Shown here: one piece after another, positions 10,568-62,680 of the stretch
Numbering within the stretch: the first letter of the stretch is position 1
How the letters are laid out: every line of letters starts with the position of its first letter
Source: Bacteroidia bacterium
Lineage (GTDB): Bacteria > Bacteroidota > Bacteroidia > AKYH767-A > OLB10
Length of the DNA: 64,000 nt
Assembly (NCBI GenBank): GCA_038215705.1
Contig: JBBQQQ010000003.1
Location: 69,575-133,574, forward strand
Reading direction: 5' to 3'
The notes under the pieces: generated by a model
Told to the model about the DNA's origin: nothing
The model's database searches: none
The model's input: only the letters and a program-made list of their open reading frames with translations
Program-made: the position numbers and the translations under genes

Positions 10568-12121
10568 TTATCGGTTCGATAAACTAATTACCGGTAAAAT
10601 CATTTCTTCGGGTGAAACACCACCATGCTGAAATGTATTTTTATAAAAGTTTACATAGTAATTATAGTTATTCGGATAAGCGAAAAATTTATCCTGTTTT
10701 GCAAACACAAATGTTGTGCTCAGGTTCGTTCGCGGGAGCATTGCATCGGAAGGATTTTTTATTTCAAATACATCCTTCTTGTCATAATTCAGATTTTTAC
10801 CCTGCTTGTACCGAAGATTGGTATTCGTATTTCTATCGCCAATGAGTTTTGAAGGTTCTTTCACCCTTATCGTGCCATGGTCGGTGCTGATTACGACTTT
10901 TACTTTTTTAGCTGTTATTTTACGAATGGCTTCCAGCAATGGTGAATGTTCAAACCACGAAACTGTAAGTGAACGGTAGGCTGATTCATCATCTGCCAGC
11001 TCACGTATCACCTGCATATCAGTTCGGGCATGTGAAAGCATGTCCACAAAATTATAAACAATAATGTTGAATTTATTCTGGAACATGTTGGCAATATTAT
11101 CAACCAGCATTTTTCCTGCTTCAAAATTGGTGATCTTGGTATATGAAAATTTCAGTTGCTTTCGCAGACGTTGTACCTGGTCGCCAAAAAAATCTTCTTC
11201 ATGCATGTTTTTTCCTCCTTCGTCTTCATCATTAAACCAGAGTTTCGGAAATCGCTTTTCGATGTCGGATGGCATCATGCCGGCGAAAATTGCATTACGT
11301 GAATATTGTGTTGCTGTTGGAAGAATACTGAAATATGCATCTTCTTCTATCACCTGTAATTCCTCACTCAGAATCGGAGCAATCACTTTCCACTGATCGA
11401 AACGAAGATTGTCGATGAGAATAAAAAATACGGGATCTTCTGTTGCTTCTATAACGGGGAAAATTTTCTTTCTGAAAAGAGTATGCGACATTACCGGTGC
11501 TTTATCATCCTGCTTCAGCCAGTTGATATAATTATTTTCAATGAACTTGCTGAACTGAACATTTGCCTCATCTTTCTGCATCGTGAGGATTTCGTACATG
11601 CCTTCATCTTTGGATTTCTCGAGTTCCAGTTCCCAAAAAATTAATTTCTTGTAAACATCAACCCATGCTTTATAATCAAGTTTATCATTCAGCGTCATTC
11701 CAATATTCCGGAATTCCTGCTGGTAAACAGAAGTGGCTTTTTCACTAACCAGCCGCTTGGTATCAAGATTCTTTTTTATTGAAAGCAGAATCTGGTTCGG
11801 ATTAACGGGCTTGATCAGGTAATCGGCAATCTTTGATCCGATTGCATCTTCCATAATATATTCCTCTTCGCTTTTGGTTATCATCACAACCGGAATCTCG
11901 GCATTCTTATTTTTAAGGCGAACGAGCGTTTCCAAACCTGAAAGTCCGGGCATATTCTCATCGAGAAAAACTATATCATACCGTTGCTTATTGAATAAAT
12001 CAAGCGCATCATGTCCATTGGTGGCTGTGGTAACGTCAAAACCTTTCTCTTGCAAAAAAAGCACATGCGGTTTCAGAAGATCAATCTCATCGTCGGCCCA
12101 AAGAATGCTTAATTTATTCAT
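10568..12121 (-). CDS. porX: Response regulator with C-terminal PglZ/alkaline-phosphatase-like domain (PorX-like T9SS regulator)
   Basis: 517 aa. N-terminal receiver domain (DDE...D58-like VFLDENMPGLSGLE...K) followed by a roughly 380-aa PglZ-type domain. Size and architecture match P. gingivalis PorX. Confidence 0.75.
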   Translation of the reverse strand: MNKLSILWADDEIDLLKPHVLFLQEKGFDVTTATNGHDALDLFNKQRYDIVFLDENMPGLSGLETLVRLKNKNAEIPVVMITKSEEEYIMEDAIGSKIADYLIKPVNPNQILLSIKKNLDTKRLVSEKATSVYQQEFRNIGMTLNDKLDYKAWVDVYKKLIFWELELEKSKDEGMYEILTMQKDEANVQFSKFIENNYINWLKQDDKAPVMSHTLFRKKIFPVIEATEDPVFFILIDNLRFDQWKVIAPILSEELQVIEEDAYFSILPTATQYSRNAIFAGMMPSDIEKRFPKLWFNDEDEGGKNMHEEDFFGDQVQRLRKQLKFSYTKITNFEAGKMLVDNIANMFQNKFNIIVYNFVDMLSHARTDMQVIRELADDESAYRSLTVSWFEHSPLLEAIRKITAKKVKVVISTDHGTIRVKEPSKLIGDRNTNTNLRYKQGKNLNYDKKDVFEIKNPSDAMLPRTNLSTTFVFAKQDKFFAYPNNYNYYVNFYKNTFQHGGVSPEEMILPVISLSNR

Positions 12122-17803: not shown

Positions 17804-18226
17804 TCACGCAGGAATAGCATCCTTACTTTTGAATGTTTCAAATTCGCTTTTCAGCTCATTAAAAATTTTGTCGTAATCATTTAACCGGATCTGGTAGGCA
17901 TTCCGCATCATAAGCAGGTAATCCGATACTTTTCCGTCACCACGTTGGGCATGTTCCACCTGGTTTTCGAATTGTTTAAAATCGTGTCTCATAATATCCA
18001 GGACATCCTTTTGCAAAATAATCTGATTCTGGAAATGCTCCGAGCTGGCAGGAACATCGCGCGGAGAATATTTAGCAACGATAATTCCAAGTTCATCCTT
18101 CATAGATTTTAATTCACCCTTAAAATAAAGAATTTGTTTTTGCCAGCCTTCATGCTCTGCAAGCAGGTCTGTCAGTTGTTCCTGTTTTTCCATAGATTGA
18201 ATTTTATTTAGAATTAGTATGATCAC
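17804..18226 (-). CDS. Hypothetical coiled-coil protein
   Basis: 140-aa ORF with charged, heptad-like composition. The start could instead be the internal Met at 18193. No family recognised. Confidence 0.45.
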   Translation of the reverse strand: MIILILNKIQSMEKQEQLTDLLAEHEGWQKQILYFKGELKSMKDELGIIVAKYSPRDVPASSEHFQNQIILQKDVLDIMRHDFKQFENQVEHAQRGDGKVSDYLLMMRNAYQIRLNDYDKIFNELKSEFETFKSKDAIPA

Positions 18227-18639
18227 TCTTATTAATTCACCGACCTTGACATTCCGTTATCGAAAAAGCTGTCATAGCTAAAAAGCGAGTCACTCGTTTG
18301 CACTGTAAATATAAAATAAAATATTAAAAATTAAAATTCTTTCACCCATTCAATTTATAAACAGGCCAAAAACTGACAGGGAATTTGCAGAGTTACGGCA
18401 GATTAAAACTTTTTAAAGCAAAAACAGGCGGTAAAACCTGAATTTCATTCATGCCGGATTATTGACCCCTTTAGTCGCCAACCCAGCAACAACCGGCCTT
18501 CCGGCCTATGGGAGTCATTACAAGGTGCTTTATTCCTGCTCATTTTCATAAAAAACTTACATCCGAAACCTTACTGCTGATATTGAAATTTATTACCCTG
18601 GCCCGGGGGGTATTTTTGGATAACATTAAAAACAGCGTT

Positions 18640-19083
18640 ATGGGAAATTTTATTAAACCTGTAGTATTGGCGTGTTGTATTGGTTTATTTGCAAGCCTTT
18701 CCGCCACGGCACAACAGGTAGAACAATCGAGAAAATACAGGGTGGTTGCTTATAAAAATGGCAATCCTTCAGTGACCTCCACATCCAACACAACCGAGGT
18801 GATTCCTTATATGAGTATATACATTCCAAACTCCTTCACTCCTAACGGCGACGGTATGAACGATACGTTTGGAGCACATGGTGAAGCTATAAAAGAATTT
18901 CGCATGCAGGTATTTAACCGCTGGGGCGAGATGATATTTGAATCGGATAATTATGCCCAGCGATGGGATGGAACTTATGATGGCGTGAAGGCACCTCAGG
19001 GTACATACGTTTATAAAGTTACCGCTTCGGGCATCACCGGGAAACGGGCCTCAAAAAACGGAACAGTGCATTTAATTTATTGA
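18640..19083 (+). CDS. Small secreted protein consisting of signal peptide plus T9SS type-B (gliding-motility CHU_C) C-terminal sorting domain
   Basis: Start chosen at MGNFIKPVVLACCIGLFASLSATAQQ (signal peptide). The C-terminal about 90 aa, NSFTPNGDGMNDTF...FNRWGEMIFES..WDGTYDG..QGTYVYKV, match the type-B CTD consensus. Confidence 0.7.
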   Translation: MGNFIKPVVLACCIGLFASLSATAQQVEQSRKYRVVAYKNGNPSVTSTSNTTEVIPYMSIYIPNSFTPNGDGMNDTFGAHGEAIKEFRMQVFNRWGEMIFESDNYAQRWDGTYDGVKAPQGTYVYKVTASGITGKRASKNGTVHLIY

Positions 19084-19210: not shown

Positions 19211-19286
19211 TTTTTTGGGTGAACTTTCGTACAATTGGGTGAATGTTTCAAATTTTTGGGTGAAAGTGGCCTTTTTTTGGGCAAAA
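19211..19286 (+). promoter_or_regulatory. Four phased direct repeats TTGGGTGAA (last copy TTGGGCAAA), spacing about 20-21 nt
   Basis: Read directly from the sequence: TTTTTTGGGTGAA..ATTGGGTGAA..TTTTTGGGTGAA..TTTTTTTGGGCAAAA, 200-280 nt upstream of the 1533-aa cargo gene. Confidence 0.4.
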
Positions 19287-19355
19287 AACAGTTATTAACA
19301 CTGTGTTAATAACTTTGAGCATTGATTTACAAATAGTTACCATTTAATAACCTTT

Positions 19356-19379
19356 AAACCCTTGTCAATTCAAGGGTTT
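19356..19379. promoter_or_regulatory. Perfect 9-bp inverted repeat AAACCCTTG-N6-CAAGGGTTT
   Basis: Palindrome 112 nt upstream of the 19491 start codon. A related copy sits upstream of the paralog at 25384. Confidence 0.4.
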
Positions 19380-19490
19380 ATATTATTTTCGGCCTCAATC
19401 CCACTAAAATAGCGGTTTAACACTTTTCGGGAATGGGGCTGCTAGCAGAAATGGGTATTAGAAAACCAATTCAAAAACCAATACAAAAAA

Positions 19491-22400
19491 ATGATTGAAA
19501 CAAAATCCCTCAAACCAGCAGGGCGGTCATGGCGAAATTTGCCATTAACAGCTTCTCTGGTGTCATTGCTTATGATGATCCCCTTCGTCACGGTTATGGC
19601 ACAAACAACGTACAATCCCCTCCGTTACTGGAATTTTAACGGTTCCAGTGCAGCTACCGATCAGATGGGTAACTACAATCTGAACTTTACCACCTATAAT
19701 TCAGCGTATACTGTTGAGAACAGCGGCCAGGTAGGAAAATACATTACACTTAACGGGTCATCAAGCCTTATCGATGGCGGATCAGTTTCGTTAAGCAATG
19801 CAGTAACAATTGAAATGTTATTAAAACCGGGTTATTTATTCAATCAATGTAAAATTATACAAAGAGGTGATGATGCATTTTCCGTACGAATGGAATATGC
19901 AAAAATATTTTTTACCACTACTCATAAAAATTCATCAGGTTCCAATGTTGTGAATGAGTTTGCAGTGGATCTGAACGGTATCGGCAGAAAGTCATACGGT
20001 TATTATGTTGATAATAACTGGCATCACATGGTTTTCCGTTTTGATGCTTCTTCAGGTACTAAGGAAATCTGGGTAGACGGACAGTTACCTTCCGGCTTTT
20101 CAACAACTGTTACACCTGGAAGCTTTTCTAACAGCGGAAGCACCACAGTTTATCTCAATCATACTATAGGATATGTAAAATATCTTGGAAGTATTGACGA
20201 GGTGGCTATTTATAATTCAGCCATTCCGTCTTCTCTTATCTACAAACATTACCTGGGTGTTCAAAACGGACAGGGTTATGATTTTGTAAACAATTATTCG
20301 GGTTCGGTACCTGCTGCAGCCAGCATCACGGGTTCAATCGATCCCACTGAGTTTGCTCCGGGTCATCCAAGTGTTAATGTTTCGGCAACAGACCAGGTTC
20401 TTTCTTTCCCGGTTCCACGTTACAAAACGGGTCATACCCTATTGCCTAACGTACCTTTATATGGTGTTGAATACCTTGGAGGTTTATTGCAGCCGGGAGT
20501 CTCTTACAACCAGGCTTTTGCAAATGCAAAAATTCAACAGGCTGACCTTATCAATAATTTCAATCAATCAATATTGATTGCAAGCAATACAGGTGAATAC
20601 GGTTATGCGAACGATACCACCAAATTTTCAGGTTGGTTTATCAAGTATGCCAATAACAACCCTTCTAAAAAAACCAGTGCATTTTCTTTCTGGCCGCAAT
20701 TAAATCCGAGAAATATCGGAAAGGCTTCAAGTCTTGCTTATGCAGAATGTAATTGTATGAGCAATAACCATTATCTGCGAAACAGCTCCGGTCAGTTTCT
20801 TGATCTTTCTGGAAATGTTACTTCCGACAAATGGCTCAGTCCTGCTGCCCCGGTCGATTCAATCGCATACGACGGCTTAACCCAGCGTTTTTACCTTCAG
20901 CAAATCACTGCCCGCATGACCCGTCCTCTGGATCTGATCTTTGAAAATGGAGAAACACTGCCATTCTATAACAACCCTACAGCTCTTGCAAAAGATCCTG
21001 CTGTACTGAATGATAAAAATAACAGTGGCCTCGACTGGTATACCTACGAAGGACGCCGCGCTAAAGAAAAAGCGCTTGCGTATCGTAACCAGTTTATGAA
21101 CCTTCCTGCTTTATCTAATACCAAGTTTGCCTATTTCCAGGTTGACGGTCAGTCAACATGGCGTTTCAAATACAGTGAAATGCGTGAGGCAAGCACTCAG
21201 ATAAATGGACAGTATTACCCAACAGGTGATATTTACATGCGTTATCCCGACAACTGGAGATACTGGAGCAGTGCATGGCATGGATGGCAGTGGGTAGCTG
21301 AATCAAGAAAAGTTGAACTTGCAAACGGCGATAAATTGTATTCACCTCCTGTTGCTGCAGGCTGGGATTTTGATGAAACTAAAAATGTTCGCCCTGCACA
21401 ATGGCTGGGAATGTTAAAAGCGTTCTCAATGACCGGTGCTGAATTCTTCTATCCTTCATTTTTCACCACATCCACTCCTTACCAGGATCCAAAGAACTGG
21501 GCATGGCAGGTAGTTATGCCTTCATATTCACAGGCTATAAGTAGTCGCTATGAGGACTTATTGCGTAACGGATTTCTGATGGAAGGTGATGTTCCTGATA
21601 ATTATTCAACACCTTCTTATAATGCTTACTCTTTTAAATCGGGTGACTTACGCAAGCTGGTTGTAATCAGGAAACATAATACGCTTGCAAAATATGCGAT
21701 TACAGGAACGCTTCAGCCTAACTCAAATATGATGGGCAATGCTGAAAATTCAGGTGTTGCTTCTATAGCGCTTGACGGACAAACGCTGAAGTTCCAGGTG
21801 AGACGCCAGGGAAGCACATATATCTACGACAAATCAAATGCTGCTGCTCCTGTGTTTTATCAGCTCGACGGATGGCATGAAGCAACTCACCCTTCCTCAT
21901 GGTCTAAGGACTTTAATTTCGAGGCAGAATTATTTGACAACTCCAATTCAAGTGCAGTAATCAAAACGGTTGTTCCTTCAGGAACCACAGCTGGTGACTT
22001 CACTAATTATACAAGCTATGTGAGCTTTACAGCTGCGTCGGATATCATATTCAACTTTACTCCCCGCAAAGGAGCTCCTTCAACGCAATATCTGTGGGTG
22101 AGAGCACGCAGTAAAGATGGTTCTTCTACCGGTTTCACAGCTACATTGAACAGCGGTGCGGTAAATACTTTCGATTGCATCCGTGATACAAACTGGGTTT
22201 GGTACCGTTTCAACACCAGTAATGCTGCAGTTGTTTACAATGGCCTTACTACAACCAGCAACCAGTTAAAAATTACTGCTCTTAATACCAAAATTGAAAT
22301 TGACAAAGTTTCCCTGATGAGCACTTCAAGCGCTGTTTATGGAAATGCAGTAAATTCATGTACCAATGCGCAGGCAAGCATCACTGCTAACGGTTCAACC

Positions 22401-24092
22401 ACATTCTGTCAGGGCGGAAGTGTAAATCTTACAGCAAGCACCGGCACATCATACCAGTGGTCTAACGGCGCAACTTCCCAGGCAATCACTGTCTCCTCAA
22501 CCGGAACGTATACAGTTACCGTTACAACAAATGGTGTAGGAACTTCTACTTCTTCGCCTGTAAGCGTAACTGTTAACCCATTACCTACAGCAACCATCAG
22601 CGCCAGCGGATCTACTACCTTCTGCCAGGGTGGATCGGTAACGCTGACAGCTTCTTCAGGATCGTCCTATCTGTGGAGTCCGGGAAATCAGACTTCACAA
22701 TCAATAACTGTTACAACAGGTGGTACTTATAATGTACGTGTAACAAATTCTAACAGCTGCGCTAAAGTTTCGGCAAATACAAGTGTTACTGTAAACAGTC
22801 TGCCGGTTGCAACAATCTCACCAAGCGGATCATTAAATCTTGCTGCAGGAGGAAGTGTAACGCTTACCGCATCATCAGGAAGCAGCTATCTGTGGTTACC
22901 CGGTAACCAGACTTCACAATCTATTAGTGTGAACACAGCAGGTTCCTACACAGTAAGAGTTACAAATGGTTCAGGCTGTTCTGCGACATCTGCTGCTGCA
23001 GTAGTTACTGTTGCTTCCTCAGGTGGTGGAACTGCAACCATTACTACTTCAGGTCATACTACATTCTGCCAGGGTGGAAGTGTAACACTTACTGCCAGCA
23101 ACGGAACGTCCTTCCTGTGGTCAAATGGATCTACCAATAAATCAATTACCGTGAGTGCATCCGGAACATATACAGTAACGGTATACAATGGAACAACTCC
23201 ATCAACGTCAGCTCCGGTAAGTGTAATTGTTTGGCCCCTTCCAACGGCAACAATCACTGCCAGTGGACCTACATCTTTCTGTACAGGCGGTACGGTTACA
23301 TTAACAGCGTCTTCCAATTACTCGTATTCCTGGACTCCGGGTGGACAAACCAGTCAGTCAATAAACGTATCCACTTCCGGTAATTACAATGTTATAGTTA
23401 CTAATTCGAACGGCTGTACAAAAACTGCATCTTCGGTGCCTGTTACTGTTTCAAGTTGTACTGCCTGTGATCCTCCTTATGGCCTGGTAACTTCAAATGT
23501 CAAGTATAATTCGGCTACTTTTTCATGGGGACATCCCGGTACCGGTCAAACCCAGTACAATGTTAAGATCAAAAACATGCAGACGGGGTATAACTATATC
23601 ACCGGTAAAGTTCCTTACACTACTCAGACTATCTCTGTTGGAGCAAATCAAGCGACAAGTTATCGCTGGTGGGTACGCTCCTGGTGTGGTACTTCAGTAA
23701 GTTCTACTTACGCAGGTTACCTGGCCTTCACTACTCCATCAGTTCGAACAATGTCAAATGGAATTAATGAAGAAACTCCTGAGCTGACAGAAACATTCCT
23801 TGATACAGAGGATGATCCTTCGATGACGTTCTATATCGATGAAAATCAGGTTCAGGTATTCCCGAACCCAGCCAGTACGAGTGCTGCCATTTCGTTTAAG
23901 GTTGATCAGAATGAAAAAATGACACTTACGATTATGGAGATCAATGGCAAAGTGATTTCAACTGAGACTATAGATGCAATGGAAGGTATTAATCTTCATG
24001 ACATGGATCTGAGTAATTATCCGAAAGGATTGTATATGATACAGCTTACAGGAGGTGGAAAAACAACCACTAAGAGGCTTGCTGTTCAATAA
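19491..24092 (+). CDS. Very large T9SS-secreted protein: LamG-like domain + uncharacterised module + Ig-like repeats + FN3 + type-A CTD
   Basis: 1533 aa with a signal peptide. A LamG/concanavalin-like region is followed by an about 600-aa Trp-rich conserved module. Seven or more 75-aa Ig-like repeats (TFCQGGSVTLTAS..YLWSPGNQTSQSITV) and an FN3 domain follow. The C-terminal sorting domain reads VFPNPASTSAAISF...GLYMIQL. Confidence 0.85.
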   Translation: MIETKSLKPAGRSWRNLPLTASLVSLLMMIPFVTVMAQTTYNPLRYWNFNGSSAATDQMGNYNLNFTTYNSAYTVENSGQVGKYITLNGSSSLIDGGSVSLSNAVTIEMLLKPGYLFNQCKIIQRGDDAFSVRMEYAKIFFTTTHKNSSGSNVVNEFAVDLNGIGRKSYGYYVDNNWHHMVFRFDASSGTKEIWVDGQLPSGFSTTVTPGSFSNSGSTTVYLNHTIGYVKYLGSIDEVAIYNSAIPSSLIYKHYLGVQNGQGYDFVNNYSGSVPAAASITGSIDPTEFAPGHPSVNVSATDQVLSFPVPRYKTGHTLLPNVPLYGVEYLGGLLQPGVSYNQAFANAKIQQADLINNFNQSILIASNTGEYGYANDTTKFSGWFIKYANNNPSKKTSAFSFWPQLNPRNIGKASSLAYAECNCMSNNHYLRNSSGQFLDLSGNVTSDKWLSPAAPVDSIAYDGLTQRFYLQQITARMTRPLDLIFENGETLPFYNNPTALAKDPAVLNDKNNSGLDWYTYEGRRAKEKALAYRNQFMNLPALSNTKFAYFQVDGQSTWRFKYSEMREASTQINGQYYPTGDIYMRYPDNWRYWSSAWHGWQWVAESRKVELANGDKLYSPPVAAGWDFDETKNVRPAQWLGMLKAFSMTGAEFFYPSFFTTSTPYQDPKNWAWQVVMPSYSQAISSRYEDLLRNGFLMEGDVPDNYSTPSYNAYSFKSGDLRKLVVIRKHNTLAKYAITGTLQPNSNMMGNAENSGVASIALDGQTLKFQVRRQGSTYIYDKSNAAAPVFYQLDGWHEATHPSSWSKDFNFEAELFDNSNSSAVIKTVVPSGTTAGDFTNYTSYVSFTAASDIIFNFTPRKGAPSTQYLWVRARSKDGSSTGFTATLNSGAVNTFDCIRDTNWVWYRFNTSNAAVVYNGLTTTSNQLKITALNTKIEIDKVSLMSTSSAVYGNAVNSCTNAQASITANGSTTFCQGGSVNLTASTGTSYQWSNGATSQAITVSSTGTYTVTVTTNGVGTSTSSPVSVTVNPLPTATISASGSTTFCQGGSVTLTASSGSSYLWSPGNQTSQSITVTTGGTYNVRVTNSNSCAKVSANTSVTVNSLPVATISPSGSLNLAAGGSVTLTASSGSSYLWLPGNQTSQSISVNTAGSYTVRVTNGSGCSATSAAAVVTVASSGGGTATITTSGHTTFCQGGSVTLTASNGTSFLWSNGSTNKSITVSASGTYTVTVYNGTTPSTSAPVSVIVWPLPTATITASGPTSFCTGGTVTLTASSNYSYSWTPGGQTSQSINVSTSGNYNVIVTNSNGCTKTASSVPVTVSSCTACDPPYGLVTSNVKYNSATFSWGHPGTGQTQYNVKIKNMQTGYNYITGKVPYTTQTISVGANQATSYRWWVRSWCGTSVSSTYAGYLAFTTPSVRTMSNGINEETPELTETFLDTEDDPSMTFYIDENQVQVFPNPASTSAAISFKVDQNEKMTLTIMEINGKVISTETIDAMEGINLHDMDLSNYPKGLYMIQLTGGGKTTTKRLAVQ

Positions 24093-24143: not shown

Positions 24144-24434
24144 GTCAGCATTTTCGCTGAGTGACCTGAAAATTCTTTTCCTGTTATCAAAATGCCAGAA
24201 AAAATTTTAAAACTCACACTCCGTTTATCCGGAATATAGTTTGAGTTTTTTTGCTCTCACCTCTGACGGTGGGCTTTTCAAGCTGGCGGTTAAATCAAAA
24301 TCCTGTAATTATTAATGCAAATCTTACATGTTACCGAAGTATCAAAAGATGCTTCATATCTGTGCCGGGGTGAGCCTATTTTTGTTGCATCATATCCAAT
24401 GAACGAAAATAACTACTTAATAAATTTTAAAGAA

Positions 24435-53219: not shown

Positions 53220-53292
53220 CACGGGTGGAGAGACTCGAACTCCCAGCCAATGGTTTTGGAGACCACTACTCTACCAATTGAGCTACACCCGT
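53220..53292 (-). tRNA. tRNA-Trp (anticodon CCA)
   Basis: Manual fold: acceptor ACGGGTG/CACCCGT, anticodon loop CTCCAAA, T-loop GTTCGAGTC. CCA is not encoded. Confidence 0.85.
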
Positions 53293-53344
53293 AACTTTTT
53301 ATGATCTTTCTCACTGTGACAGCAGGCATCTAACTTATCCCTTT

Positions 53345-53430
53345 CAACTTCTCACCCGTCTCTCCGAGCCGGGCAGGCTTGCCACTTCTCACTTCTCACT
53401 TCTCACTTCTCACTTGTTGTATGACTTATT
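53345..53430. repeat. Repeat element: core CACCCGTCTCTCCGAGCCGGGCAGGCTTG + (CACTTCT)x4-5 + GTATGACTTAT flank
   Basis: Same core sequence as in the 62836-63100 array. Lies between tRNA-Trp and tuf. Confidence 0.8.
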
Positions 53431-53493
53431 TTCAATCCGTTTGCAGCAGTAAAATCCCGTTAAGGATCAACTGCTGCAAAAAGATATGTTTTA

Positions 53494-54681
53494 TTACTTA
53501 ATAATTTCAGTCACCTGACCGGCACCAACGGTTCTGCCACCTTCACGGATAGCGAAACGAAGACCTTTGTCCATAGCAACAGGAACAATAAGCTGAACGG
53601 TGATAGTTACGTTATCACCAGGCATTACCATTTCACGTCCTTCAGGAAGTACGATTTCACCGGTAACATCAGTTGTTCTCAGGTAAAATTGAGGACGGTA
53701 TTTATTATGGAATGGAGTATGACGTCCACCTTCTTCTTTTTTAAGAACATAGATTTCAGCTTTGAAATCAGTGTGCGGAGTAATGGATCCCGGTTTAGCG
53801 ACAACCATACCACGACGGATATCGTTTTTCTCAATACCGCGGAGCAACAAACCTACGTTATCACCTGCTTCACCTTTGTCAAGGATTTTGCGGAACATTT
53901 CCACACCTGTAACGGTTGAAGTAAGTTTTTTCTCCTGCATTCCCAGGATATCAACAGTATCGTTTGAATTGATAATTCCTCTTTCGATACGTCCTGTGGC
54001 AACAGTACCACGACCTGTAATAGAGAATACATCTTCAACAGGCATCAAAAACGGCTTGTCGATATCACGTGGAGGAATTGGAATAAAAGTATCCACGGCT
54101 TCCATAAGATCGTTAATTTTTGGAACCCATTTAGCATCATTATTCAAACCGCCCAGGGCAGATCCGCGGATGATTGGTGTGTTATCACCATCAAACTGAT
54201 AGAAACTGAGAAGTTCACGGATTTCCATTTCAACAAGATCCAATAACTCAGGATCGTCAACCATGTCAACCTTATTCATGAAAACAACAATCTTTGGTAC
54301 ACCTACCTGACGTGCAAGCAGAATGTGCTCGCGTGTTTGTGGCATAGGTCCGTCAGTTGCTGCAACAACAAGTATAGCACCATCCATCTGGGCGGCACCA
54401 GTAACCATGTTCTTTACATAATCGGCGTGACCAGGACAGTCAACGTGTGCATAGTGACGTGCTTTGGTTGAATATTCAACGTGTGCGGTATTAATCGTAA
54501 TACCACGCTCTTTTTCTTCAGGAGCGTTATCAATCGAAGAGAAATCTCTAACTTCTGCCAGACCTTGTGATGCAAGTACTGAAGTGATTGCAGCTGTAAG
54601 AGTAGTTTTACCGTGGTCAACGTGACCAATGGTTCCAATGTTTACGTGGGGTTTGGAACGATCGAATTTTTCTTTTGCCAT
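53494..54681 (-). CDS. tuf: Elongation factor Tu
   Basis: 395 aa. [15 protein letters not shown] and NKVD motifs. Confidence 0.97.
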
Positions 54682-54890
54682 TTTGTATTGGTTATTTAAA
54701 CGTGGTTTTTATTAATTGATTTTGGATTCCTGTTCGTGTGATCCTGCTTACCGTTGAACTGTGAATCAGGACACGAGGCACGACAGGAATTTTTTTTTGT
54801 ACTATTTATATATTAAACTTTTTATTTTTGAACTGTAATAAGCAAACTAAACTCATCCAAACTCCCCGCTGCCGTCCGAAAGGCAGATGG

Positions 54891-54963
54891 AGCCAATGAC
54901 CAGGATCGAACTGGTGACCTCATCCTTACCATGGATGTGCTCTACCGACTGAGCTACATTGGC
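54891..54963 (-). tRNA. tRNA-Thr (anticodon GGT)
   Basis: Manual fold: acceptor GCCAATG/CATTGGC, anticodon loop ATGGTAA, T-loop GTTCGATCC. CCA is encoded (54888-54890). Confidence 0.85.
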
Positions 54964-55056
54964 TTTTGAGCATACCGGGATTCCAGTTTTGCAGGAACCT
55001 GCAATGAAGCCTGATCACTAAATCTAAAAACCAGCGACTCTGGTTTTTTACTCTTG

Positions 55057-55129
55057 AGCGGAAGACCGGGCTCGAACCGGCCACCCTCAGCTTGGAAGGC
55101 TGATGCTCTACCAAATGAGCTACTTCCGC
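55057..55129 (-). tRNA. tRNA-Gly (anticodon TCC)
   Basis: Manual fold: acceptor GCGGAAG/CTTCCGC, anticodon stem TCAGC/GCTGA, loop CTTCCAA. Confidence 0.85.
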
Positions 55130-55327
55130 TTATCACCATTCGTAGCTCCTCGCAGAGAAGCGAAGGATGGTTATTGGTACAATCCGTAACTCTTAATGAG
55201 CGAAGGATGGATATTTTTTTATACTCTTCTGATCGCAACGAGCAAAAGTTCACTCATTCTCTCAATTAAGTCAACCTCTGAACTTAATCTCACCCGCCCT
55301 CCTACGCGAAGCTACAGAGGGCTAAGT

Positions 55328-55409
55328 GGGGAGAGAAGGATTCGAACCTTCGAAGTCGTAAGACAACAGATTTACAGTCTGTCCCATTTGGCCACTCTGG
55401 TATCTCCCC
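55328..55409 (-). tRNA. tRNA-Tyr (anticodon GTA), long variable arm
   Basis: Manual fold: acceptor GGGGAGA/TCTCCCC, anticodon loop CTGTAAA, T-loop GTTCGAATC, 82 nt. Confidence 0.85.
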
Positions 55410-55462
55410 AATTTACCTGACAGCCATCAGGAACGGAATGGTTTTCACCACACTTTCCGAAG

Positions 55463-55536
55463 AGCCGATGGAGGGATTCGAACCCCCGACCCACTGATTA
55501 CAAATCAGTAGCTCTGGCCAACTGAGCTACATCGGC
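55463..55536 (-). tRNA. tRNA-Thr (anticodon TGT)
   Basis: Manual fold: acceptor GCCGATG/CATCGGC, anticodon stem ACTGA/TCAGT, loop TTTGTAA, T-loop GTTCGAATC. Confidence 0.85.
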
Positions 55537-55612: not shown

Positions 55613-55822
55613 ACGGTTAGATAAAAAATTTGTCACCAACACCATGAACATCCTGAGCATTGATTATTAACGAATTACCTCATTGTTAAATACAATTTTT
55701 TATTAGAAACGCACCACCTAAGGGCTAAATAACTAATTTGTTATCAACAAAATATCAAAATTTCTATTTAGTCGGAATATTTCTTAAATTTGATACTTGT
55801 TGAATTTCCAAATCTGAATCAA

Positions 55823-56890
55823 ATGAACCGGATGACTTTTAAATCTCAGATAAAGGGCCTTGCCGTCCTTTCTATTGTGCTATTTGGGTCGAATGTGAAT
55901 TCCCAGAATGTGGGGGTTGGAACAGCCACTCCGCTTGAAAAACTTCATGTGATCGGGAATATCAGGTCTTCCACCCTTTCGGGTTTGGGTAACAGAATGG
56001 TTTTGGCTGATCCGAATGGTACACTTTTAACCGCATCCGGACTTGGTTCGCCGGCATGGATGGTCACCGGAAATTCCGGCCTTTCGGGTGGAACAACTAC
56101 CACCACAGGAACCAATTTTATTGGAAATACCGATGCCCAGAATATTTGTTTCAGAACTAATAATATTGAACGTGGACGTTTCAGCGCACTGGGTGAATTT
56201 TTTGTAGGAACTTTCAATACTGTGATTCCAGGAGACCTCATGAATGCTGTTGGTAACCCGGTATTTCCATGGGCAGTGAATGGGTATGTTCCTGCAGGAT
56301 CTAACGGCGGTGGCGTATACGGACAAATACAATCGGGTAACGGAACAATTTTCGGAGCCGTACAGGGTGAATATTCCGGCACCAATGCCTCCGGCGCCGG
56401 TGTCAGGGGAATTGCAATTAACCCATTTTCAATCGGAGTACAGGGTCAAGAATCGACCTTGTTAGGATGGGCGGGTTATTTTAACGGGGATGTGTTTTCA
56501 ACAACCGGTTATTACATCCCTTCCGATGAACGGTTGAAGAAAGATGTGAATCCATTGAAGAATGCACTCGATCAGATTAAAGGCATTTCCATATATTCCT
56601 ATTATTATGATCAGGCAAAATATCCGAATCTCGGATTAAGCAATCGCTTGCAATACGGTGTACTCGCCAATGAACTGGCTGCTATATTACCTTCGGCAGT
56701 TGCAACTAAAAAACTTGTCGATGGTAATCCATCCAGGATGGCAGATACACGAGAAATTTCAGCGCTCGAAGTGCAGGTTGTGAACTATGAAATGCTCATT
56801 CCTTTACTTGTTGCAGGAATGAAGGAACAACAGGAACTAATTGAAGAGCTTAATCGGCGCATTACTACACTTGAAACACAATCTAAATAG
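55823..56890 (+). CDS. Tail-fiber-like secreted protein with C-terminal peptidase S74 intramolecular chaperone domain
   Basis: Signal peptide, conserved N-terminal module (QNVGVGTATPLEKLHVIGN..), a Gly-rich beta-repeat region, and a C-terminal SDERLKKDV...coiled coil typical of the auto-cleaving chaperone domain of phage tail spikes. The ORF opens at 55790. Confidence 0.7.
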   Translation: MNRMTFKSQIKGLAVLSIVLFGSNVNSQNVGVGTATPLEKLHVIGNIRSSTLSGLGNRMVLADPNGTLLTASGLGSPAWMVTGNSGLSGGTTTTTGTNFIGNTDAQNICFRTNNIERGRFSALGEFFVGTFNTVIPGDLMNAVGNPVFPWAVNGYVPAGSNGGGVYGQIQSGNGTIFGAVQGEYSGTNASGAGVRGIAINPFSIGVQGQESTLLGWAGYFNGDVFSTTGYYIPSDERLKKDVNPLKNALDQIKGISIYSYYYDQAKYPNLGLSNRLQYGVLANELAAILPSAVATKKLVDGNPSRMADTREISALEVQVVNYEMLIPLLVAGMKEQQELIEELNRRITTLETQSK

Positions 56891-56922
56891 TTTTATTTTT
56901 ATTTCTAACTTAATATTTCTCA

Positions 56923-58584
56923 ATGAAAAATTTTTACTGCATCAGTTTATTGCTTCTCGTTTTAAATTGCTTTACAGGACAACAGACCATCGCACAGAAT
57001 GTGGGTATTGGTACGGCCACTCCTCTTGAAAAATTACACATTATCGGTAATGTCCGTTCATCAACACTTGCAGGTATCGGAAACCGTTTAGTCCTCTCTG
57101 ATCCGAATGGAACATTGATAAATGCTACCGGACTCACTTCCCCTGCCTGGTTAATTACAGGTAATTCCGGAACCGTGGCCACAACGAATTTCATAGGAAC
57201 CATCGATTCAGTTGCTTTCATTATGCGCACCTTTAATATAGAAAGAATGTGGATACTTTCCAACGGACAAGTTTCGGTAAACAATGCCACTCCTTTTGCC
57301 ACAGCTGTGTTTTCATCCTATGCTGCAGGTGGTTTTGATGCAGTCACCGGAGCAGCTACAGGTACGGGTGACGGAGTTTACGGACAAAATACAAGTACCG
57401 GAGCAACACCCGGTAATGGCGTTACCGGAATTTCAACTACCGCCACAGGTTTTGGAGTGGGTGCTTATAATATTAATACAAGCGGAACTGCAGTACTGGG
57501 AGTAGGCAATGGTGTGGCAGGTAATTATGCAGTGGCCGGATCCGGAGCGGCCTTCACAGGTTCCCGCATTGGTACGTATTCGCTTTCATTAAATACTTCA
57601 GGCAACGTATCCAGTACCGGAATTATCGGAAGGGATGCCGGTGGAACTTTCACTATGCTCAACGGCGGCGCAGGGGTTACAGGTTCAGCTGCTAATTCAG
57701 GTGTAGGTGTTTTCGCCTACAATACCGGAGTTACTAATCTGAGCCATGGCGTGTATTCCTCTATTGCATCCACAACTGCTGCAGCAGTACTTGGAATTGG
57801 CGGAAATTCAGGAGTGCAGGGTCAGACTACTGTCGCATCCGGTATTGGAACAAGCGGTTTTGGAGGTGCAAATGGTGACGGGGTTTATGGAACTGCCCCC
57901 GGTAATCTTGGATTCGGCGTAACAGGATTTGTTACCAACGGAACATCCGCCATCGGAGTGTATGGATATGCCGATGCAAACGGTCCAACACGCTTTGGTG
58001 GTTTCTTCGATAATGATCTTGGTTCGAGTGGTGTGAAAACTTTTATGATTGATCATCCGCTGGATCCTTCTAATAAAATTCTTAAACATTTTTCAATGGA
58101 ATCACCTGAGGTACTTAACGTGTATCGCGGTAATGTGGTTTTAAATGGTGCCGGCGAAGCCATTGTGACGCTTCCTGATTATTTTGAATCGGTCAACAAC
58201 ACCAATTACAGCTATCACATAACTCCCATCGGTGCCCCTGCGCAGCTGTATGTTAAACAGGAAATAGCTAATAAGGAATTTATAATTGCAGGTGGAACCA
58301 ACGGGATGAAAGTGTCGTGGATCGTATATGCCGAAAGAAATGATCCTTACCTCCAGCAAAATCCGGAAGAACGTGAAGTGATTATAAATAAAACCGGAAC
58401 TGAAGCAGGAAAGTATATCAGTCCTGTATTGTACGGTCAGCCTAAGGAAAATGGATTGTACTATAAAAATCAGCAAGGTGCCAAAGTAACTCCGCAACCA
58501 ACAACAACAGAAAAAACAACAGAACAAACGGAGCAAAAAAAACCTGCGGATTTCACTCCGGTAGATACGTTCGATTCAAATTAA
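56923..58584 (+). CDS. Tail-fiber-like secreted paralog (no S74 domain; distinct IDHPLDP C-terminal module)
   Basis: 553 aa. The N-terminal 90 aa are about 70 percent identical to the 55823 protein. A long Gly/Thr-rich repeat region is followed by a C-terminal FMIDHPLDPSNKILKH..domain and an acidic tail. Confidence 0.7.
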   Translation: MKNFYCISLLLLVLNCFTGQQTIAQNVGIGTATPLEKLHIIGNVRSSTLAGIGNRLVLSDPNGTLINATGLTSPAWLITGNSGTVATTNFIGTIDSVAFIMRTFNIERMWILSNGQVSVNNATPFATAVFSSYAAGGFDAVTGAATGTGDGVYGQNTSTGATPGNGVTGISTTATGFGVGAYNINTSGTAVLGVGNGVAGNYAVAGSGAAFTGSRIGTYSLSLNTSGNVSSTGIIGRDAGGTFTMLNGGAGVTGSAANSGVGVFAYNTGVTNLSHGVYSSIASTTAAAVLGIGGNSGVQGQTTVASGIGTSGFGGANGDGVYGTAPGNLGFGVTGFVTNGTSAIGVYGYADANGPTRFGGFFDNDLGSSGVKTFMIDHPLDPSNKILKHFSMESPEVLNVYRGNVVLNGAGEAIVTLPDYFESVNNTNYSYHITPIGAPAQLYVKQEIANKEFIIAGGTNGMKVSWIVYAERNDPYLQQNPEEREVIINKTGTEAGKYISPVLYGQPKENGLYYKNQQGAKVTPQPTTTEKTTEQTEQKKPADFTPVDTFDSN

Positions 58585-58600
58585 TTAAATTCTGATCATC

Positions 58601-61600
58601 ATGCGTATACTTTTAATAAAAATGAAACTATCACTTCTCACTATAGCGGTGTGCCTGTTTGTTTCTGGTGACATCCTTGCCCAATGCATGTCCTATCATG
58701 TTCCCCTTCATCAGAAGGTCATGAATTCATCGGTTATAATTGAAGGAAAAATTATCAGTAAGAGCTCTTTCTGGAATCCAGCATCTGATTTCATATATAC
58801 CAGCAACGTTATAGAGGTTTATAAAGTATTTAAAGGTGGCATAACTGCATCACAGGTTGAAATAATTACTGAAGGCGGCACTATAGGTAATTCGATGATT
58901 GTTGCTGAACCGTCACTGCAACTGAATGTTAATGATATTGGTGTCTTTTTCATGATTCCTGCCGGGCAACTCAATCCATCATCGCCACGACCTGCCGCTT
59001 TACAGTTTGAAGGATATGCATCCAACCAGTCACTCGTCCGGTATGATATGAAATCGCTGGAGGCAATTGAACCGTTTACTGTTTACACTGATATTACCAC
59101 CGATATTTATCAGTATATCACAACGACTCTGAACCAGAATTACTCCGAAATAATTCCTTTCAACGTATTTCAGCCATCGAATTCAGGTCCTTCAGGAAAT
59201 CCGGTTCCAATGGCATTTCCGACCATAACAAGTATTACATCACCTTCTACAGCTGGAACTTTTTCATTGGTAACAGTAAATGGAAACAATTTCGGGGCCG
59301 GCCCTTATGGCGGATCACGTGCTTTGGAATTCCGGGATGCCAACAATGGAGGCGCAGGCTTTATTCCCACTCCTGCAAATCACATTATTTCATGGACGAA
59401 TACTTCAATCCAGGCATGGGTACCTACACAAGCTGGCAGCGGTAACATCAGGGTCACAAATGATCTGGGTGAATCCACCATTTCAGCAGTAACAATCACT
59501 ATTAATTATAATGAATCAAATGTGAACTCGGGTGGTGTTTATTATCAGCCTGATCTTATCAATGATAACGGTATTGGCGGATATAACTTTGTTTACAATA
59601 CAACCTTTAACGGCAATGCCGCAGCAGTTGCATCCTTTGAAAGAGCGCTTCAGACCTGGCGTTGTGGAACGTTTGTCAACTTTAATAAAACCGGTACCAC
59701 CCCCACTTCCTGCCAGGCACTTGATGGAACCAATCTTGTTACATTTGACGGTGCCTGTGCACTTCCTGCAGGAGTTCTTGGCGTTTCTTACAGTTATTAC
59801 AGTGCCTGTGGATTTGGCATATGGTACCTGAATGAAAACGATTTAAAATTCCGTACCAACGGAACGGGGGGCATTAACTGGAATTACGGCCCTGCTCCCA
59901 CTGCAGGAGGCCTTTTTGATTTTGAATCCGTCTCATTGCATGAATTAGGACACAGTCACCAACTGGGACATACCATCGTCCCGGTAACGGTAATGAATTA
60001 CGCGGTTGCTCCCAATACGGACCGGCGCACGCTTACACCTGTGAGTGAAACTGCAGGAGGTAATGACATCATGTCACGAAGTGTGGTAAATAACAGTTGT
60101 GCTCCTACTGCAATGGTGGCATTAAATGCATCAAATTGTTCCATCAATGCACCTATCGCCAATTTCACAGGAACACCTCTTTCTGGCTGCAATAGTTTAA
60201 CAGTAACATTCACTGACCAGAGTACCGGTACACCAACCAGCTGGAACTGGAGTTTTCCCGGAGGCGTACCGGCTGCTTTCGCAGGACAAAATCCACCTCC
60301 GGTTCTTTATGGCGCACCGGGTAATTATACAGTCACGCTTTCGGTTTCAAACGCATCCGGTAACGATACCGAAACTAAAACAAACTATGTTGTTGTAAAT
60401 AATTGTCCACCTCCCGTTGCCGATTTTTCAGGAACACCACAAAGTGTATGTACCGGTCAACAGGTTTATTTTGTAGATCTGTCAACAAACAGTCCTACGA
60501 GCTGGTCATGGACATTTCCCGGGGGAGCACCAGGCGCCTCTTCAGCACAAAATCCTGCAGTTTTTTATGCTGCACCGGGTGTATATGATGTTACATTAAC
60601 AGCAACCAATCCTTATGGATCAGGTTCTGTTACCAAAATAGGTTACATTACAGTGGGAAATTGCCCGGTACCTCCTGTCGCAAATTTCTCAGGATCTCCC
60701 ACTACATTATGCGCCGGCGGAACAGTTTCCTTTACGGACCTGTCGGCAAACAGTCCAAATTCCTGGCAGTGGACATTTCCGGGAGGAACTCCTGCAACTT
60801 CAATCGGGCAGAATCCGGTAGTAACGTATAACACCGCAGGCACATACGCTGTTACATTAATAGCAAGCAATGGTGCCGGGTCGAACACTGCAACCTTTTC
60901 AGGATACATAACCGTAAACGTATGTGCTCCACCGGTAGTTGCTTTTACAGGATGGCCTACCACAGTCTGCACCGGAAGTTCCGTTTCATTTGCTGATCAG
61001 TCAACAAACTCTCCTTCATCATGGGCATGGACGTTCCCGGGAGGCACACCGGCGGCATCTGCTGTACAGAACCCTGTAATCACATATAATGTTGCCGGAA
61101 ACTACAACGTTACATTGCAGGCAACCAACTCCTTTGGAAACAATTCACTTACCAAAACAACTTATATTACCGTAGCAACCTGTCCTGCATTTGGCTCGGG
61201 ACTCATTGTTAATGACGGCTCCCTCATTCACGTTGAACCAAACGCGCTTGTAACAATCCAGGGTGGTTTAATCAACCGCGATAATACAGCAGCTAACATC
61301 GGGCGTGTTGATAACTGGGGATTGATAACTCTAACAGGCGACTGGACCAACAACAGTTCATTGAATGCATTCATTAACTCGAGTCCCGGTACTACTGAAT
61401 TAATGGGAGCTGCACAAACCATTACGGGGAGTACTACTACAAACTTTTACAATCTTTCTTTAACAGGATCGGGGATAAAAACACTTACCATAAATACTGT
61501 TGCAGAGGGCACACTGGCACTCAACGACCGTGAGCTTGCAACGCAGGGCAACTGGATGCACGTGACCAATGCTGCGCCAACGGCAATTACACGAACAGGA

Positions 61601-62680
61601 GGATTAACTTCAACCCCAGTTCAGGGATTCATTAGCAGCACCGGTACAGGCAGGGTTCGATGGAATACCAATACCACCAGTACTTATATTTTCCCACTGG
61701 GATCAAGTATAGGCAATCCGCGTTTCCGTCCTATAGGTTTAAAACCTACCAATACTTCACTGAATACCTTTGCAGCACGTTTTGTAAATAATGATCCAAC
61801 AATTGATGGATATCCAATTACTGTTAAAGATGCAAACATCGGCAACATCAATCCTTACTGGTATCAAAAAATAAACAGTCTGACCGGCACAACCGATCCG
61901 GATGTCACATTATATTTTGACAATATTGCCGATAACATTGCACCACTACCTACACTCATTATGGCGCAATGGGCCTGGAATGCTCCTCCCGTCCAGTGGA
62001 GAGCAATTTCCGGTGTTATCATTGGCGGAGCCGCATCTCCCACGCTCTCCAGTGTTACAAAAGCTGCATGGATTTCATTTGACACTGAAAATTTCAACCT
62101 TGCACCCGAATCCACTCCGTTACCTGTTGAATTAATCAGCTTTACCGGAATGTGTAAACCCGGAGGTATTATTGTAAAATGGATAACTGCTTCAGAAACC
62201 AATAACGATTATTTCAAACTTGAAGCAAGCAGTGATGGAATCAACTTCAATGAAGTATCGATCCGTAAAGGAGCAGGAACGAAAAGTACCTCTACGGAAT
62301 ATACAGTTTTTGATACCTCTGCTGATACGTACAAAGCGAAATATTACAGATTGAAACAATTTGATTTTGACGGATCTGAAAATGAGTCGAAAATAATTCT
62401 GGTTGACTGTTCAAGGCAATCTGCTTCTTCCACCGAAATTTCAATTTTCCCCAATCCTACTTATAACGATTTAAATGTGCTGATCAACCAGACGTTTTCC
62501 GGCAAAACTAAAATCAGCATTGTAAATGTTTTAGGTCAGATTGTTTTTTCAAACGAATATTCTCTTGAATCCGGCCTTCAGCAAATCAAATTAAATCTGG
62601 GTGAATTTGCTCCTGATCTGTACCAGGTGGTAATTGAAAGTGATGATTACCGGAAAGTCTGGAAGATTGTGAAGGAATAG
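58601..62680 (+). CDS. Large T9SS-secreted protein: IPT/TIG + metzincin-like Zn-peptidase motif + 4 PKD domains + beta-rich region + type-A CTD
   Basis: 1359 aa with a signal peptide. HELGHSHQLGH (HExxHxxxxxH) is preceded by a matrixin-like FERALQTW segment. Four PKD repeats (..TFTDQSTG.PTSW.W.FPGG..). C-terminal sorting domain ISIFPNPTYNDLNV...DLYQVVI. Confidence 0.8.
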   Translation: MRILLIKMKLSLLTIAVCLFVSGDILAQCMSYHVPLHQKVMNSSVIIEGKIISKSSFWNPASDFIYTSNVIEVYKVFKGGITASQVEIITEGGTIGNSMIVAEPSLQLNVNDIGVFFMIPAGQLNPSSPRPAALQFEGYASNQSLVRYDMKSLEAIEPFTVYTDITTDIYQYITTTLNQNYSEIIPFNVFQPSNSGPSGNPVPMAFPTITSITSPSTAGTFSLVTVNGNNFGAGPYGGSRALEFRDANNGGAGFIPTPANHIISWTNTSIQAWVPTQAGSGNIRVTNDLGESTISAVTITINYNESNVNSGGVYYQPDLINDNGIGGYNFVYNTTFNGNAAAVASFERALQTWRCGTFVNFNKTGTTPTSCQALDGTNLVTFDGACALPAGVLGVSYSYYSACGFGIWYLNENDLKFRTNGTGGINWNYGPAPTAGGLFDFESVSLHELGHSHQLGHTIVPVTVMNYAVAPNTDRRTLTPVSETAGGNDIMSRSVVNNSCAPTAMVALNASNCSINAPIANFTGTPLSGCNSLTVTFTDQSTGTPTSWNWSFPGGVPAAFAGQNPPPVLYGAPGNYTVTLSVSNASGNDTETKTNYVVVNNCPPPVADFSGTPQSVCTGQQVYFVDLSTNSPTSWSWTFPGGAPGASSAQNPAVFYAAPGVYDVTLTATNPYGSGSVTKIGYITVGNCPVPPVANFSGSPTTLCAGGTVSFTDLSANSPNSWQWTFPGGTPATSIGQNPVVTYNTAGTYAVTLIASNGAGSNTATFSGYITVNVCAPPVVAFTGWPTTVCTGSSVSFADQSTNSPSSWAWTFPGGTPAASAVQNPVITYNVAGNYNVTLQATNSFGNNSLTKTTYITVATCPAFGSGLIVNDGSLIHVEPNALVTIQGGLINRDNTAANIGRVDNWGLITLTGDWTNNSSLNAFINSSPGTTELMGAAQTITGSTTTNFYNLSLTGSGIKTLTINTVAEGTLALNDRELATQGNWMHVTNAAPTAITRTGGLTSTPVQGFISSTGTGRVRWNTNTTSTYIFPLGSSIGNPRFRPIGLKPTNTSLNTFAARFVNNDPTIDGYPITVKDANIGNINPYWYQKINSLTGTTDPDVTLYFDNIADNIAPLPTLIMAQWAWNAPPVQWRAISGVIIGGAASPTLSSVTKAAWISFDTENFNLAPESTPLPVELISFTGMCKPGGIIVKWITASETNNDYFKLEASSDGINFNEVSIRKGAGTKSTSTEYTVFDTSADTYKAKYYRLKQFDFDGSENESKIILVDCSRQSASSTEISIFPNPTYNDLNVLINQTFSGKTKISIVNVLGQIVFSNEYSLESGLQQIKLNLGEFAPDLYQVVIESDDYRKVWKIVKE

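Follow-up and report, generated by a model that had tools for sequence, protein, structure and literature searches.

A Fixed-Geometry Array of Phased Repeats and Palindromes as a Putative Cis-Regulatory Module of a Giant T9SS Cargo Gene in Uncultured Bacteroidota

The first giant T9SS cargo gene of the window, by which we mean the whole 64-kb stretch of DNA that was analyzed, is preceded by direct repeats that recur every two helical turns, by two palindromes, and by a predicted promoter, and the spacing of these elements is conserved among relatives. We consider it probable that they form a cis-regulatory region of about 190 bp with a fixed geometry that controls this gene, in which the repeats are the upstream part and serve as transcription factor sites. 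We regard it as a new instance of a familiar kind of cis-regulatory module, the array of transcription factor sites. To our knowledge, the regulation of T9SS cargo is known almost exclusively from the PorXY-SigP cascade of Porphyromonas, and we know of none described for the giant, adhesin-like cargo of environmental members of the Bacteroidota. Our search of the literature found no account of GGGTGAA repeats, of the palindrome, or of LytTR proteins with T9SS, and apart from the studies of PorXY-SigP it yielded no cis-element of any T9SS cargo gene.

A Phased Array between Two Sorting-Domain Genes

The array lies where the earlier note had placed it, between a small gene encoding a sorting domain and the giant cargo gene:

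18508-19083, + strand: small gene with a CHU_C/type-B T9SS sorting domain, the upstream neighbor, in conserved synteny
19215-19223, + strand: repeat copy 1, TTGGGTGAA, an extra distal copy 20 nt from copy 2
19235-19243, + strand: repeat copy 2, TTGGGTGAA, in gapless alignment with the first of three conserved sites in relatives
19256-19264, + strand: repeat copy 3, TTGGGTGAA, the best conserved site among relatives, in which it is usually TTGGGTGAA
19277-19285, + strand: repeat copy 4, degenerate TTGGGCAAA, the promoter-proximal site, as read from the sequence
19491-24092, + strand: first giant T9SS cargo gene, 1533 aa, with PKD and a Por_Secre_tail sorting domain, the presumed regulated gene

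A pattern search of both strands of the window located TTGGGTGAA at copies 1 to 3 and nowhere else, and these three exact copies all fall within 50 nt, against a chance expectation of approximately 0.5 copies in the window (128,000 positions/4^9). The four repeats described earlier are real and non-random, with the qualification that three are exact and the fourth has two mismatches to TTGGGTGAA. Their start-to-start steps are 20, 21, and 21 nt, not the 19, 21, and 21 nt first given, and the spacers are 11, 12, and 12 nt. A T-run precedes each copy. Defined as a chain of at least three GG[TC][GA]AA cores with steps of 20-22 nt, the array is the sole instance in the window, and no such chain occurred in 100 dinucleotide-preserving shuffles of the window. 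A single inverted ATGGGTGAA at 18341-18349, upstream of the gene for a 129-aa protein, lacks conservation in relatives and is probably a chance occurrence.

The gene order in the window is a PorX-like gene (10568-12121, - strand), an HD-domain protein, LpxD, LpxC/FabZ, LpxA, an ABC ATPase, a 70-aa ORF, the 129-aa ORF (- strand), the CHU_C gene, the 407-nt intergenic region that contains the array, the 1533-aa cargo, a 300-aa cargo, and a 1909-aa paralogous cargo. Pfam scans of essentially all ORFs of at least 110 aa detected no DNA-binding regulator domain in the window, and no candidate regulator was found within approximately 3-6 kb in any relative examined; on the basis of these scans of window ORFs and of neighbors in relatives we reject a regulator encoded at the locus. 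LytTR genes are likewise absent from the window and from the flanks of relatives. The 129-aa protein gene (17804-18190, - strand), which is divergent from the CHU_C gene and conserved in synteny, encodes a protein that carries invariant EHFQNQ...RHD.KQ.EN motifs and has no Pfam, NCBIfam, or PDB sequence match. AlphaFold2 (pLDDT 90) predicts a plain bundle of three antiparallel helices, to which no known structure matched significantly, and this predicted structure, with neither a DNA-binding fold nor a DNA-binding homolog, argues against a hidden DNA-binding protein.

Upstream of the cargo genes at 24315, 25639, 58601, and 63843 (- strand), we found neither a motif copy with one mismatch or fewer nor a phased pair. 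The earlier note had proposed a search for the motif upstream of other T9SS cargo genes, and the outcome runs against a motif shared by such genes, with the module missing both from the other cargo genes of the window and from 11 upstream regions of paralogs.

The Array Recurs Upstream of the Same Gene in Relatives

The first cargo protein has many homologs (40-78% identity), and the closest RpoB relatives of the window's lineage, an uncultured one within Bacteroidota/Bacteroidia, are all MAGs or metagenome contigs. We compared 43 loci from a metagenome scan that have the conserved N-terminal cargo domain (alignment A1), and added four further relatives by exact protein look-up. Local searches show that the block composed of the ABC gene, the 129-aa gene, the CHU_C gene, the array, and the cargo gene recurs widely, in the MAG GCA_024643795.1 (locus L122) and in many metagenome or MAG loci. 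The cargo protein of L122 is 56% identical to that of the window and is encoded in the same gene order; directly after the terminator of the CHU_C gene are TTGGGTGAA, TTGGGTGAA, and TTTGGTGAA, placed 21 nt apart, and then an imperfect version of the first palindrome of the window.

Pairs of GG[TC][GA]AA cores 20-22 nt apart are present on the strand of the gene in 20 of 22 upstream regions of first cargo genes, a set that includes one region (L139) put in because the module is present there. On the opposite strand such pairs occur in none of the 22, and cargo genes that are paralogous or unlinked lack them in all 11 upstream regions; the mean for shuffled sequences is 0.06 loci. Across approximately 480 kb of fetched loci, phased pairs are essentially confined to the position upstream of the first cargo gene. 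With looser matching, three to four repeats composed of a T-tract and GGYGAA are found in 26/28 first-cargo upstream regions, always on the strand of the gene.

Most relatives have three copies, whereas the window and L127 have four. Spacing of 21/21 nt is seen in 24 of the 26 array regions, and the window and L127 place an extra distal step of 20 nt ahead of it; in L129 and L206 an inverted copy (TTCACCCAA) takes the place of the fourth site at the distal end. The site nearest the promoter is the most degenerate everywhere, the window included; nearly all relatives have a degenerate form of it (GGCGAA, GGTGAA, or GGCAAA). The earlier proposal that the copies lie on the same face of the DNA gains support from some 20 distinct relatives that, with cargo proteins just 40-78% identical, share the core, its orientation, the 21-nt period, and the promoter distance.

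A logo of 65 units shows a T-tract at -8 to -2, followed by GG, Y, G, AA, W, and G, in which the invariance of GG and AA follows by construction from their use in defining the sites. Runs of 5-8 T stand before nearly every core. Conservation within a unit extends over approximately 14-15 of the 21 nt and is bipartite; the 65-unit logo contains no second half-site at +10/11, and its information is low at +6 to +12.

Several relatives carry additional features around the array. In one sub-lineage (L137, L138, L141, L150, L158, and L207), the CHU_C gene and the array are separated by an extra gene, which encodes about 245 aa without a family match and at whose stop codon the first repeat starts. 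L137, L138, L150, and L207 also carry one more TTTTGGGTGAA unit, which overlaps the -33 region and does not keep the phase of the array. Spirosoma validum, a member of a different order, has two TTGGGTGAA copies spaced 21 nt apart (L105, 7869-7898, - strand). They lie 318 nt upstream of the gene for a protein of 1907 aa that is similar in its C-terminal region to the same region of the T9SS cargo of the window; no palindrome or -7 box was found there at the expected offsets.

A Predicted Promoter at a Fixed Distance

The -33/-7 promoter model is well established for Bacteroidetes, and between the array and the cargo gene of the window the following elements were assigned:

19290-19314, no strand: palindrome 1, AGTTATTAACAC t GTGTTAATAACT, with perfect 12-nt arms, starting 5 nt after copy 4
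19321-19334, no strand: palindrome 2, consensus ATTGAnnnTCAAT, degenerate in the window as ATTGATTTACAAAT, in alignment columns -63 to -50
19355-19380, + strand: terminator-like hairpin TAAACCCTTG-N6-CAAGGGTTTA, with a 10-bp stem and a T-rich tail, overlapping the -33 element and the -33/-7 spacer
19362-19364, + strand: predicted -33 element TTG, with a 19-nt spacer to the -7 box, from reading of the sequence and a promoter scan
19384-19391, + strand: predicted sigma-A -7 box TATTTTCG, with one mismatch to TAnnTTTG, at a conserved offset in relatives
19428-19438, + strand: CGGGAATGGGG, a motif conserved in the leader, covering about +33 to +43 from the predicted start

In Bacteroidetes, the -7 box of sigma-A promoters is TAnnTTTG and spans positions -12 to -5 (PMC9723704), and we therefore predict that transcription starts near 19396 and that the leader is 95 nt long. 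The window contains a TAnnTTTG-like box and a TTG separated by the 19-nt spacer, and in most relatives TAnnTTTG is matched perfectly at the offset of the window's box. Given that the predicted promoter (-33 element at 19362-19364 and -7 box at 19384-19391) lies downstream of the array, the repeats are probably outside the transcribed leader. The earlier description of an array within the leader is accurate in that the repeats lie within the 407-nt intergenic region, but they are upstream of the predicted promoter, approximately 80 nt from the -33 element.

The distance from the GG of the proximal site to the TAnnTT[TC]G box is 103-105 nt, and nearly always 104 nt, in 24 of 26 array regions. 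This spacing is invariant within one base pair across lineages in which the intervening sequence has largely diverged. Such invariance is unusual for upstream sites in bacteria and points to a fixed multi-protein architecture. In an ungapped alignment anchored on the -7 box, the repeats, both palindromes, and the TTG fall in register. Relative to the predicted start, the repeat cores are at about -178, -158, -137, and -116 and the palindromes are centered at about -94 (first) and -69 (second); the end of the proximal copy (19285) is separated from the -33 TTG by about 77 nt. We also considered a 104-nt rule for other Bacteroidota, and rejected it on the inconsistent distances (99-123 nt) among the scan matches listed.

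The element GTTATTAACA-N2-3-TGTTAATAAC of palindrome 1 is present at the same offset in most relatives, and in some of them symmetric changes have occurred in both arms, e.g., GATATTAACA/TGTTAATATC in L158. Palindrome 1 is probably an operator for a dimeric protein. Palindrome 2 is clear in many relatives, whereas it is degenerate in the window. The hairpin at 19355-19380 is kept in the closest relatives (L129, L131, and L204-L206) and not in distant ones; it could be a terminator of upstream read-through or a by-product of the -33 region. Within the leader, CGGGAATGGG is present in the window, L129, L131, L127, L133, L122, and L204-L206. Directly before the ATG (19462-19489) is an A/C-rich tandem tract, AAAACCAATACA x 2.3, and AACCAA-type tracts are found in relatives. 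The leader motif CGGGAATGGG and the A/C tract may be signals for translation initiation or regulation.

The repeating unit combines a T-tract with GG(G)YGAA(W)G after it. Three such units, four in the window, follow one another in the same direction at 21-bp intervals, which places them on one DNA face, and the proximal unit lies 104 bp, or ten turns, upstream of the predicted sigma-A -7 box. In the arrangement that we consider probable, a sequence-specific transcription factor would bind these units cooperatively as a head-to-tail oligomer. The two dyad-symmetric operators would presumably be occupied by one or two proteins, dimeric or architectural, through which the distal array could communicate with RNA polymerase, and the repeat factor and the palindrome-bound protein or proteins would form a fixed-geometry complex that activates or represses the first cargo gene at its sigma-A promoter. 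The chances are about even that the repeat-binding factor belongs to another or a new class and is not a LytTR protein.

Candidate Repeat-Binding Factors

LytTR sites are direct repeats of 9-11 nt with spacers of 11-13 nt and no family-wide consensus (PMC4847170), and LytTR regulatory systems mostly have 12-bp spacers (PMC6193735). The window has three exact copies of the 9-nt core TTGGGTGAA with spacers of 11, 12, and 12 nt, which is within the corresponding period of 20-22 nt, and a 21-nt period is seen in essentially all relatives. In period, repeat length, and spacer, the array thus resembles the LytTR sites of AgrA P2/P3, of YpdB/PyhjX, and of the operon repeats of LytTR regulatory systems. 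The position of the repeats differs, in that classical LytTR sites are composed of two repeats approximately 4-11 bp upstream of -35 (PMC6193735), whereas the window has three to four copies about 80-140 bp upstream of -33, the proximal one approximately 77 nt from the TTG, with two palindromes between.

GTDB species genomes scanned for exact TTGGGTGAA-N10-13-TTGGGTGAA yielded at least 120 loci, and the source genome of the window is not among the matches listed. Many of the matches listed are in coding sequence or in long tandem arrays; low-copy intergenic pairs flanked by T-tracts were found, among these same matches, solely in Bacteroidota (9/38 versus 0/82). At least six rumen or gut Bacteroidales MAGs (L033, L041, L068, L092, L099, and L108) have three TTTTGGGTGAA units, of the T-tract plus GGGTGAA type seen in the window, with a 20-nt period directly upstream of a gene for a membrane protein of approximately 300 aa with a C-terminal LytTR domain. 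These loci were found via the same 9-mer, come from another order, and represent about two independent gene lineages rather than six. A -7-like box lies 36 nt downstream of the last unit in the rumen loci, so that, on the sequence, the units would be right beside the core promoter as expected for LytTR autoregulation. MAG Tb.RUG.238 contains more such pairs, at L099 (downstream of the gene) and at L069, and a long 'gtacagtat' inverted repeat lies next to each of them. The rumen LytTR system looks as though it is autoregulated, possibly with a small regulon or a repeated element.

The matching site geometry and the association with rumen LytTR genes make a LytTR-type factor encoded elsewhere in the genome the best single candidate class for the array, although we regard this assignment as possible rather than probable. 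In a broader version, which we consider unlikely, a T-tract followed by GGGTGAA with a period of 20-21 bp would be a Bacteroidota-wide code of one LytTR subfamily. This code would serve promoter-adjacent autoregulation in rumen Bacteroidales, and in the lineage of the window it would be built into an enhanceosome-like region of about 190 bp, with three to four phased sites ten helical turns from the -7 box plus the two operators, that switches on the giant T9SS protein. If true, such a code would provide the first cis-regulatory logic for T9SS cargo outside Porphyromonas.

Arrays bound by OmpR/PhoB proteins, such as ompF F1-F3 and the pho boxes, are composed of units that each have two half-sites of 10-11 bp. 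The array of the window shares with them several contiguous units of 20-22 bp upstream of a promoter and, if occupied as proposed, cooperative occupancy; however, the 65-unit logo has no internal half-repeat, and the lack of 10-11-bp half-sites excludes a site of the OmpR/PhoB type. The earlier suggestion of sites for an OmpR/LytTR-type activator is consistent with the data in its LytTR part, through the geometry and the rumen LytTR genes, and fails in its OmpR part.

A transcription factor outside the LytTR family, which could be an AraC/XylS-type monomer, a BldC-like head-to-tail multimer, or a member of an undescribed Bacteroidota family, is as an explanation of the array rather doubtful. 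The tandem half-sites of AraC/XylS proteins (araI1-I2 and XylS at Pm) are usually two in number and abut or overlap -35. Like them, the array has direct repeats with a 21-bp period on one face; the long half-sites with two sub-boxes are putatively matched by reading the T-tract and GGYGAA as such sub-boxes at a 21-bp period, and the length (about 14-15 of 21 nt) and bipartite nature of the conserved part of the unit favor this reading. The array differs in its location far upstream, in its three to four copies, and in having no AraC-type gene nearby; AraC-type proximal sites usually overlap -35. The same copy number and distance that set the array apart from AraC/XylS sites also distinguish it from classical LytTR promoters (PMC6193735), and in this respect they favor a factor of another class, as does the absence of a LytTR gene linked to the locus. 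Variable numbers of direct repeats bound by cooperative multimers have a reported precedent in BldC (PMC5859096), and the three or four repeats here are compatible with cooperative head-to-tail oligomers of this kind; BldC belongs to another phylum and another protein family, and the analogy is one of mechanism. Against a factor of another class, no such regulator is linked to the locus either, and among the matches listed, the sole independent genomic association found for the motif is with LytTR-domain genes.

Iterons of plasmids and phages also resemble the array, in having three to four direct repeats with a period of approximately 21-22 bp beside AT-rich DNA and a palindrome. Unlike iterons, the array is chromosomal and syntenic, has a fixed orientation and distance to the promoter and cargo gene, and is not accompanied by a rep gene. 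An origin of the iteron type was rejected on these grounds, i.e., the chromosomal syntenic block PorX-HD-LpxD-LpxC-LpxA-ABC-...-cargo, the absence of a rep gene, and the locked position relative to the promoter.

Alternatives to a Dedicated DNA-Binding Factor

T-tracts phased every two turns might curve the upstream DNA and thereby act in a mainly structural way, without a dedicated repeat-binding factor. The run of 5-8 T before nearly every core, conserved at -8 to -2, the 21-nt period in helical phase, and the rigid spacing to the promoter are all compatible with this proposal. We nevertheless consider it very unlikely, given that curvature leaves unexplained the GGYGAA core, the W-G preference, and the strict orientation (0/22 on the other strand), and that the same core is present, among the matches listed, upstream of LytTR genes in another order. 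DNA bending by the phased T-tracts could still account for part of the conservation.

Action at the level of RNA, in which the repeated UUUGGGUGAA of a long leader or small RNA is bound by an RNA-binding protein or folded, is highly improbable. In the window, no strong terminator separates the CHU_C gene from the array, a terminator-like hairpin lies downstream at 19355-19380, and the segment 19205-19330 folds somewhat better than shuffled sequences (z = -2.1), mostly on account of the palindrome and otherwise unremarkably. In contrast, a strong terminator of the CHU_C gene is located immediately before the array in L122, L133, L149, and L156, and the conserved -33/-7 promoter follows the array at a fixed distance. 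Rfam gave no match to the region at the gathering level and just sub-threshold matches on the minus strand (E = 0.05-0.3), and we rejected an RNA element after neither Rfam, under gathering and E-value thresholds, nor folding gave anything convincing. The rigid 21-nt period and the 104-nt spacing to the promoter are typical of constraints on DNA faces, and from the strand specificity, the two-turn period, and the ten-turn distance to the promoter we infer that double-stranded DNA is recognized on one face. The array is thus very likely a protein-binding upstream regulatory sequence and not part of the leader.

That the repeats are PorX sites through which the cargo gene is connected with PorX/PorY, encoded 7 kb upstream, a link raised as speculative in the earlier note, is extremely improbable: a PorX-like gene (receiver and PglZ) is part of the same conserved neighborhood and PorX of P. 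gingivalis is reported to bind promoter DNA, but the reported footprints (tattacttccataattattgttgtg, gattcgcgcaaaaatacaatatcttt, and tcgaaaaaaatgtttttctttgc) are AT-rich, have nothing in common with TTGGGTGAA, and contain no phased direct repeats (PMC8050853, PMC8265659), PorX has no canonical DNA-binding domain and that of the window consists of receiver and PglZ domains only, the porX-lpx neighborhood looks like backbone synteny, and one study reports no direct regulation of T9SS genes by PorX (PMC5005315). The domain content and the unrelated footprints led us to reject PorX as the repeat binder, and the motif is not found upstream of the other cargo genes of the window or in any of the 11 paralog regions, where a PorX regulon would be expected to have it.

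Significance

The module provides a DNA handle, consisting of a motif, a period, and an exact distance to the promoter, that can be used as bait for the regulator. It is also a basis for the definition of regulons in metagenome-assembled genomes and a test case for face-of-helix dependence. Elsewhere in the window, a cluster of five tRNA genes and the genes that follow it (53220-55536 and 55790-62680) encode, after the tRNAs, an endosialidase-chaperone (Peptidase_S74) ORF, a 553-aa ORF without matches, and a PKD-rich T9SS cargo of 1359 aa; this part of the window may be a separate surface-protein cassette.
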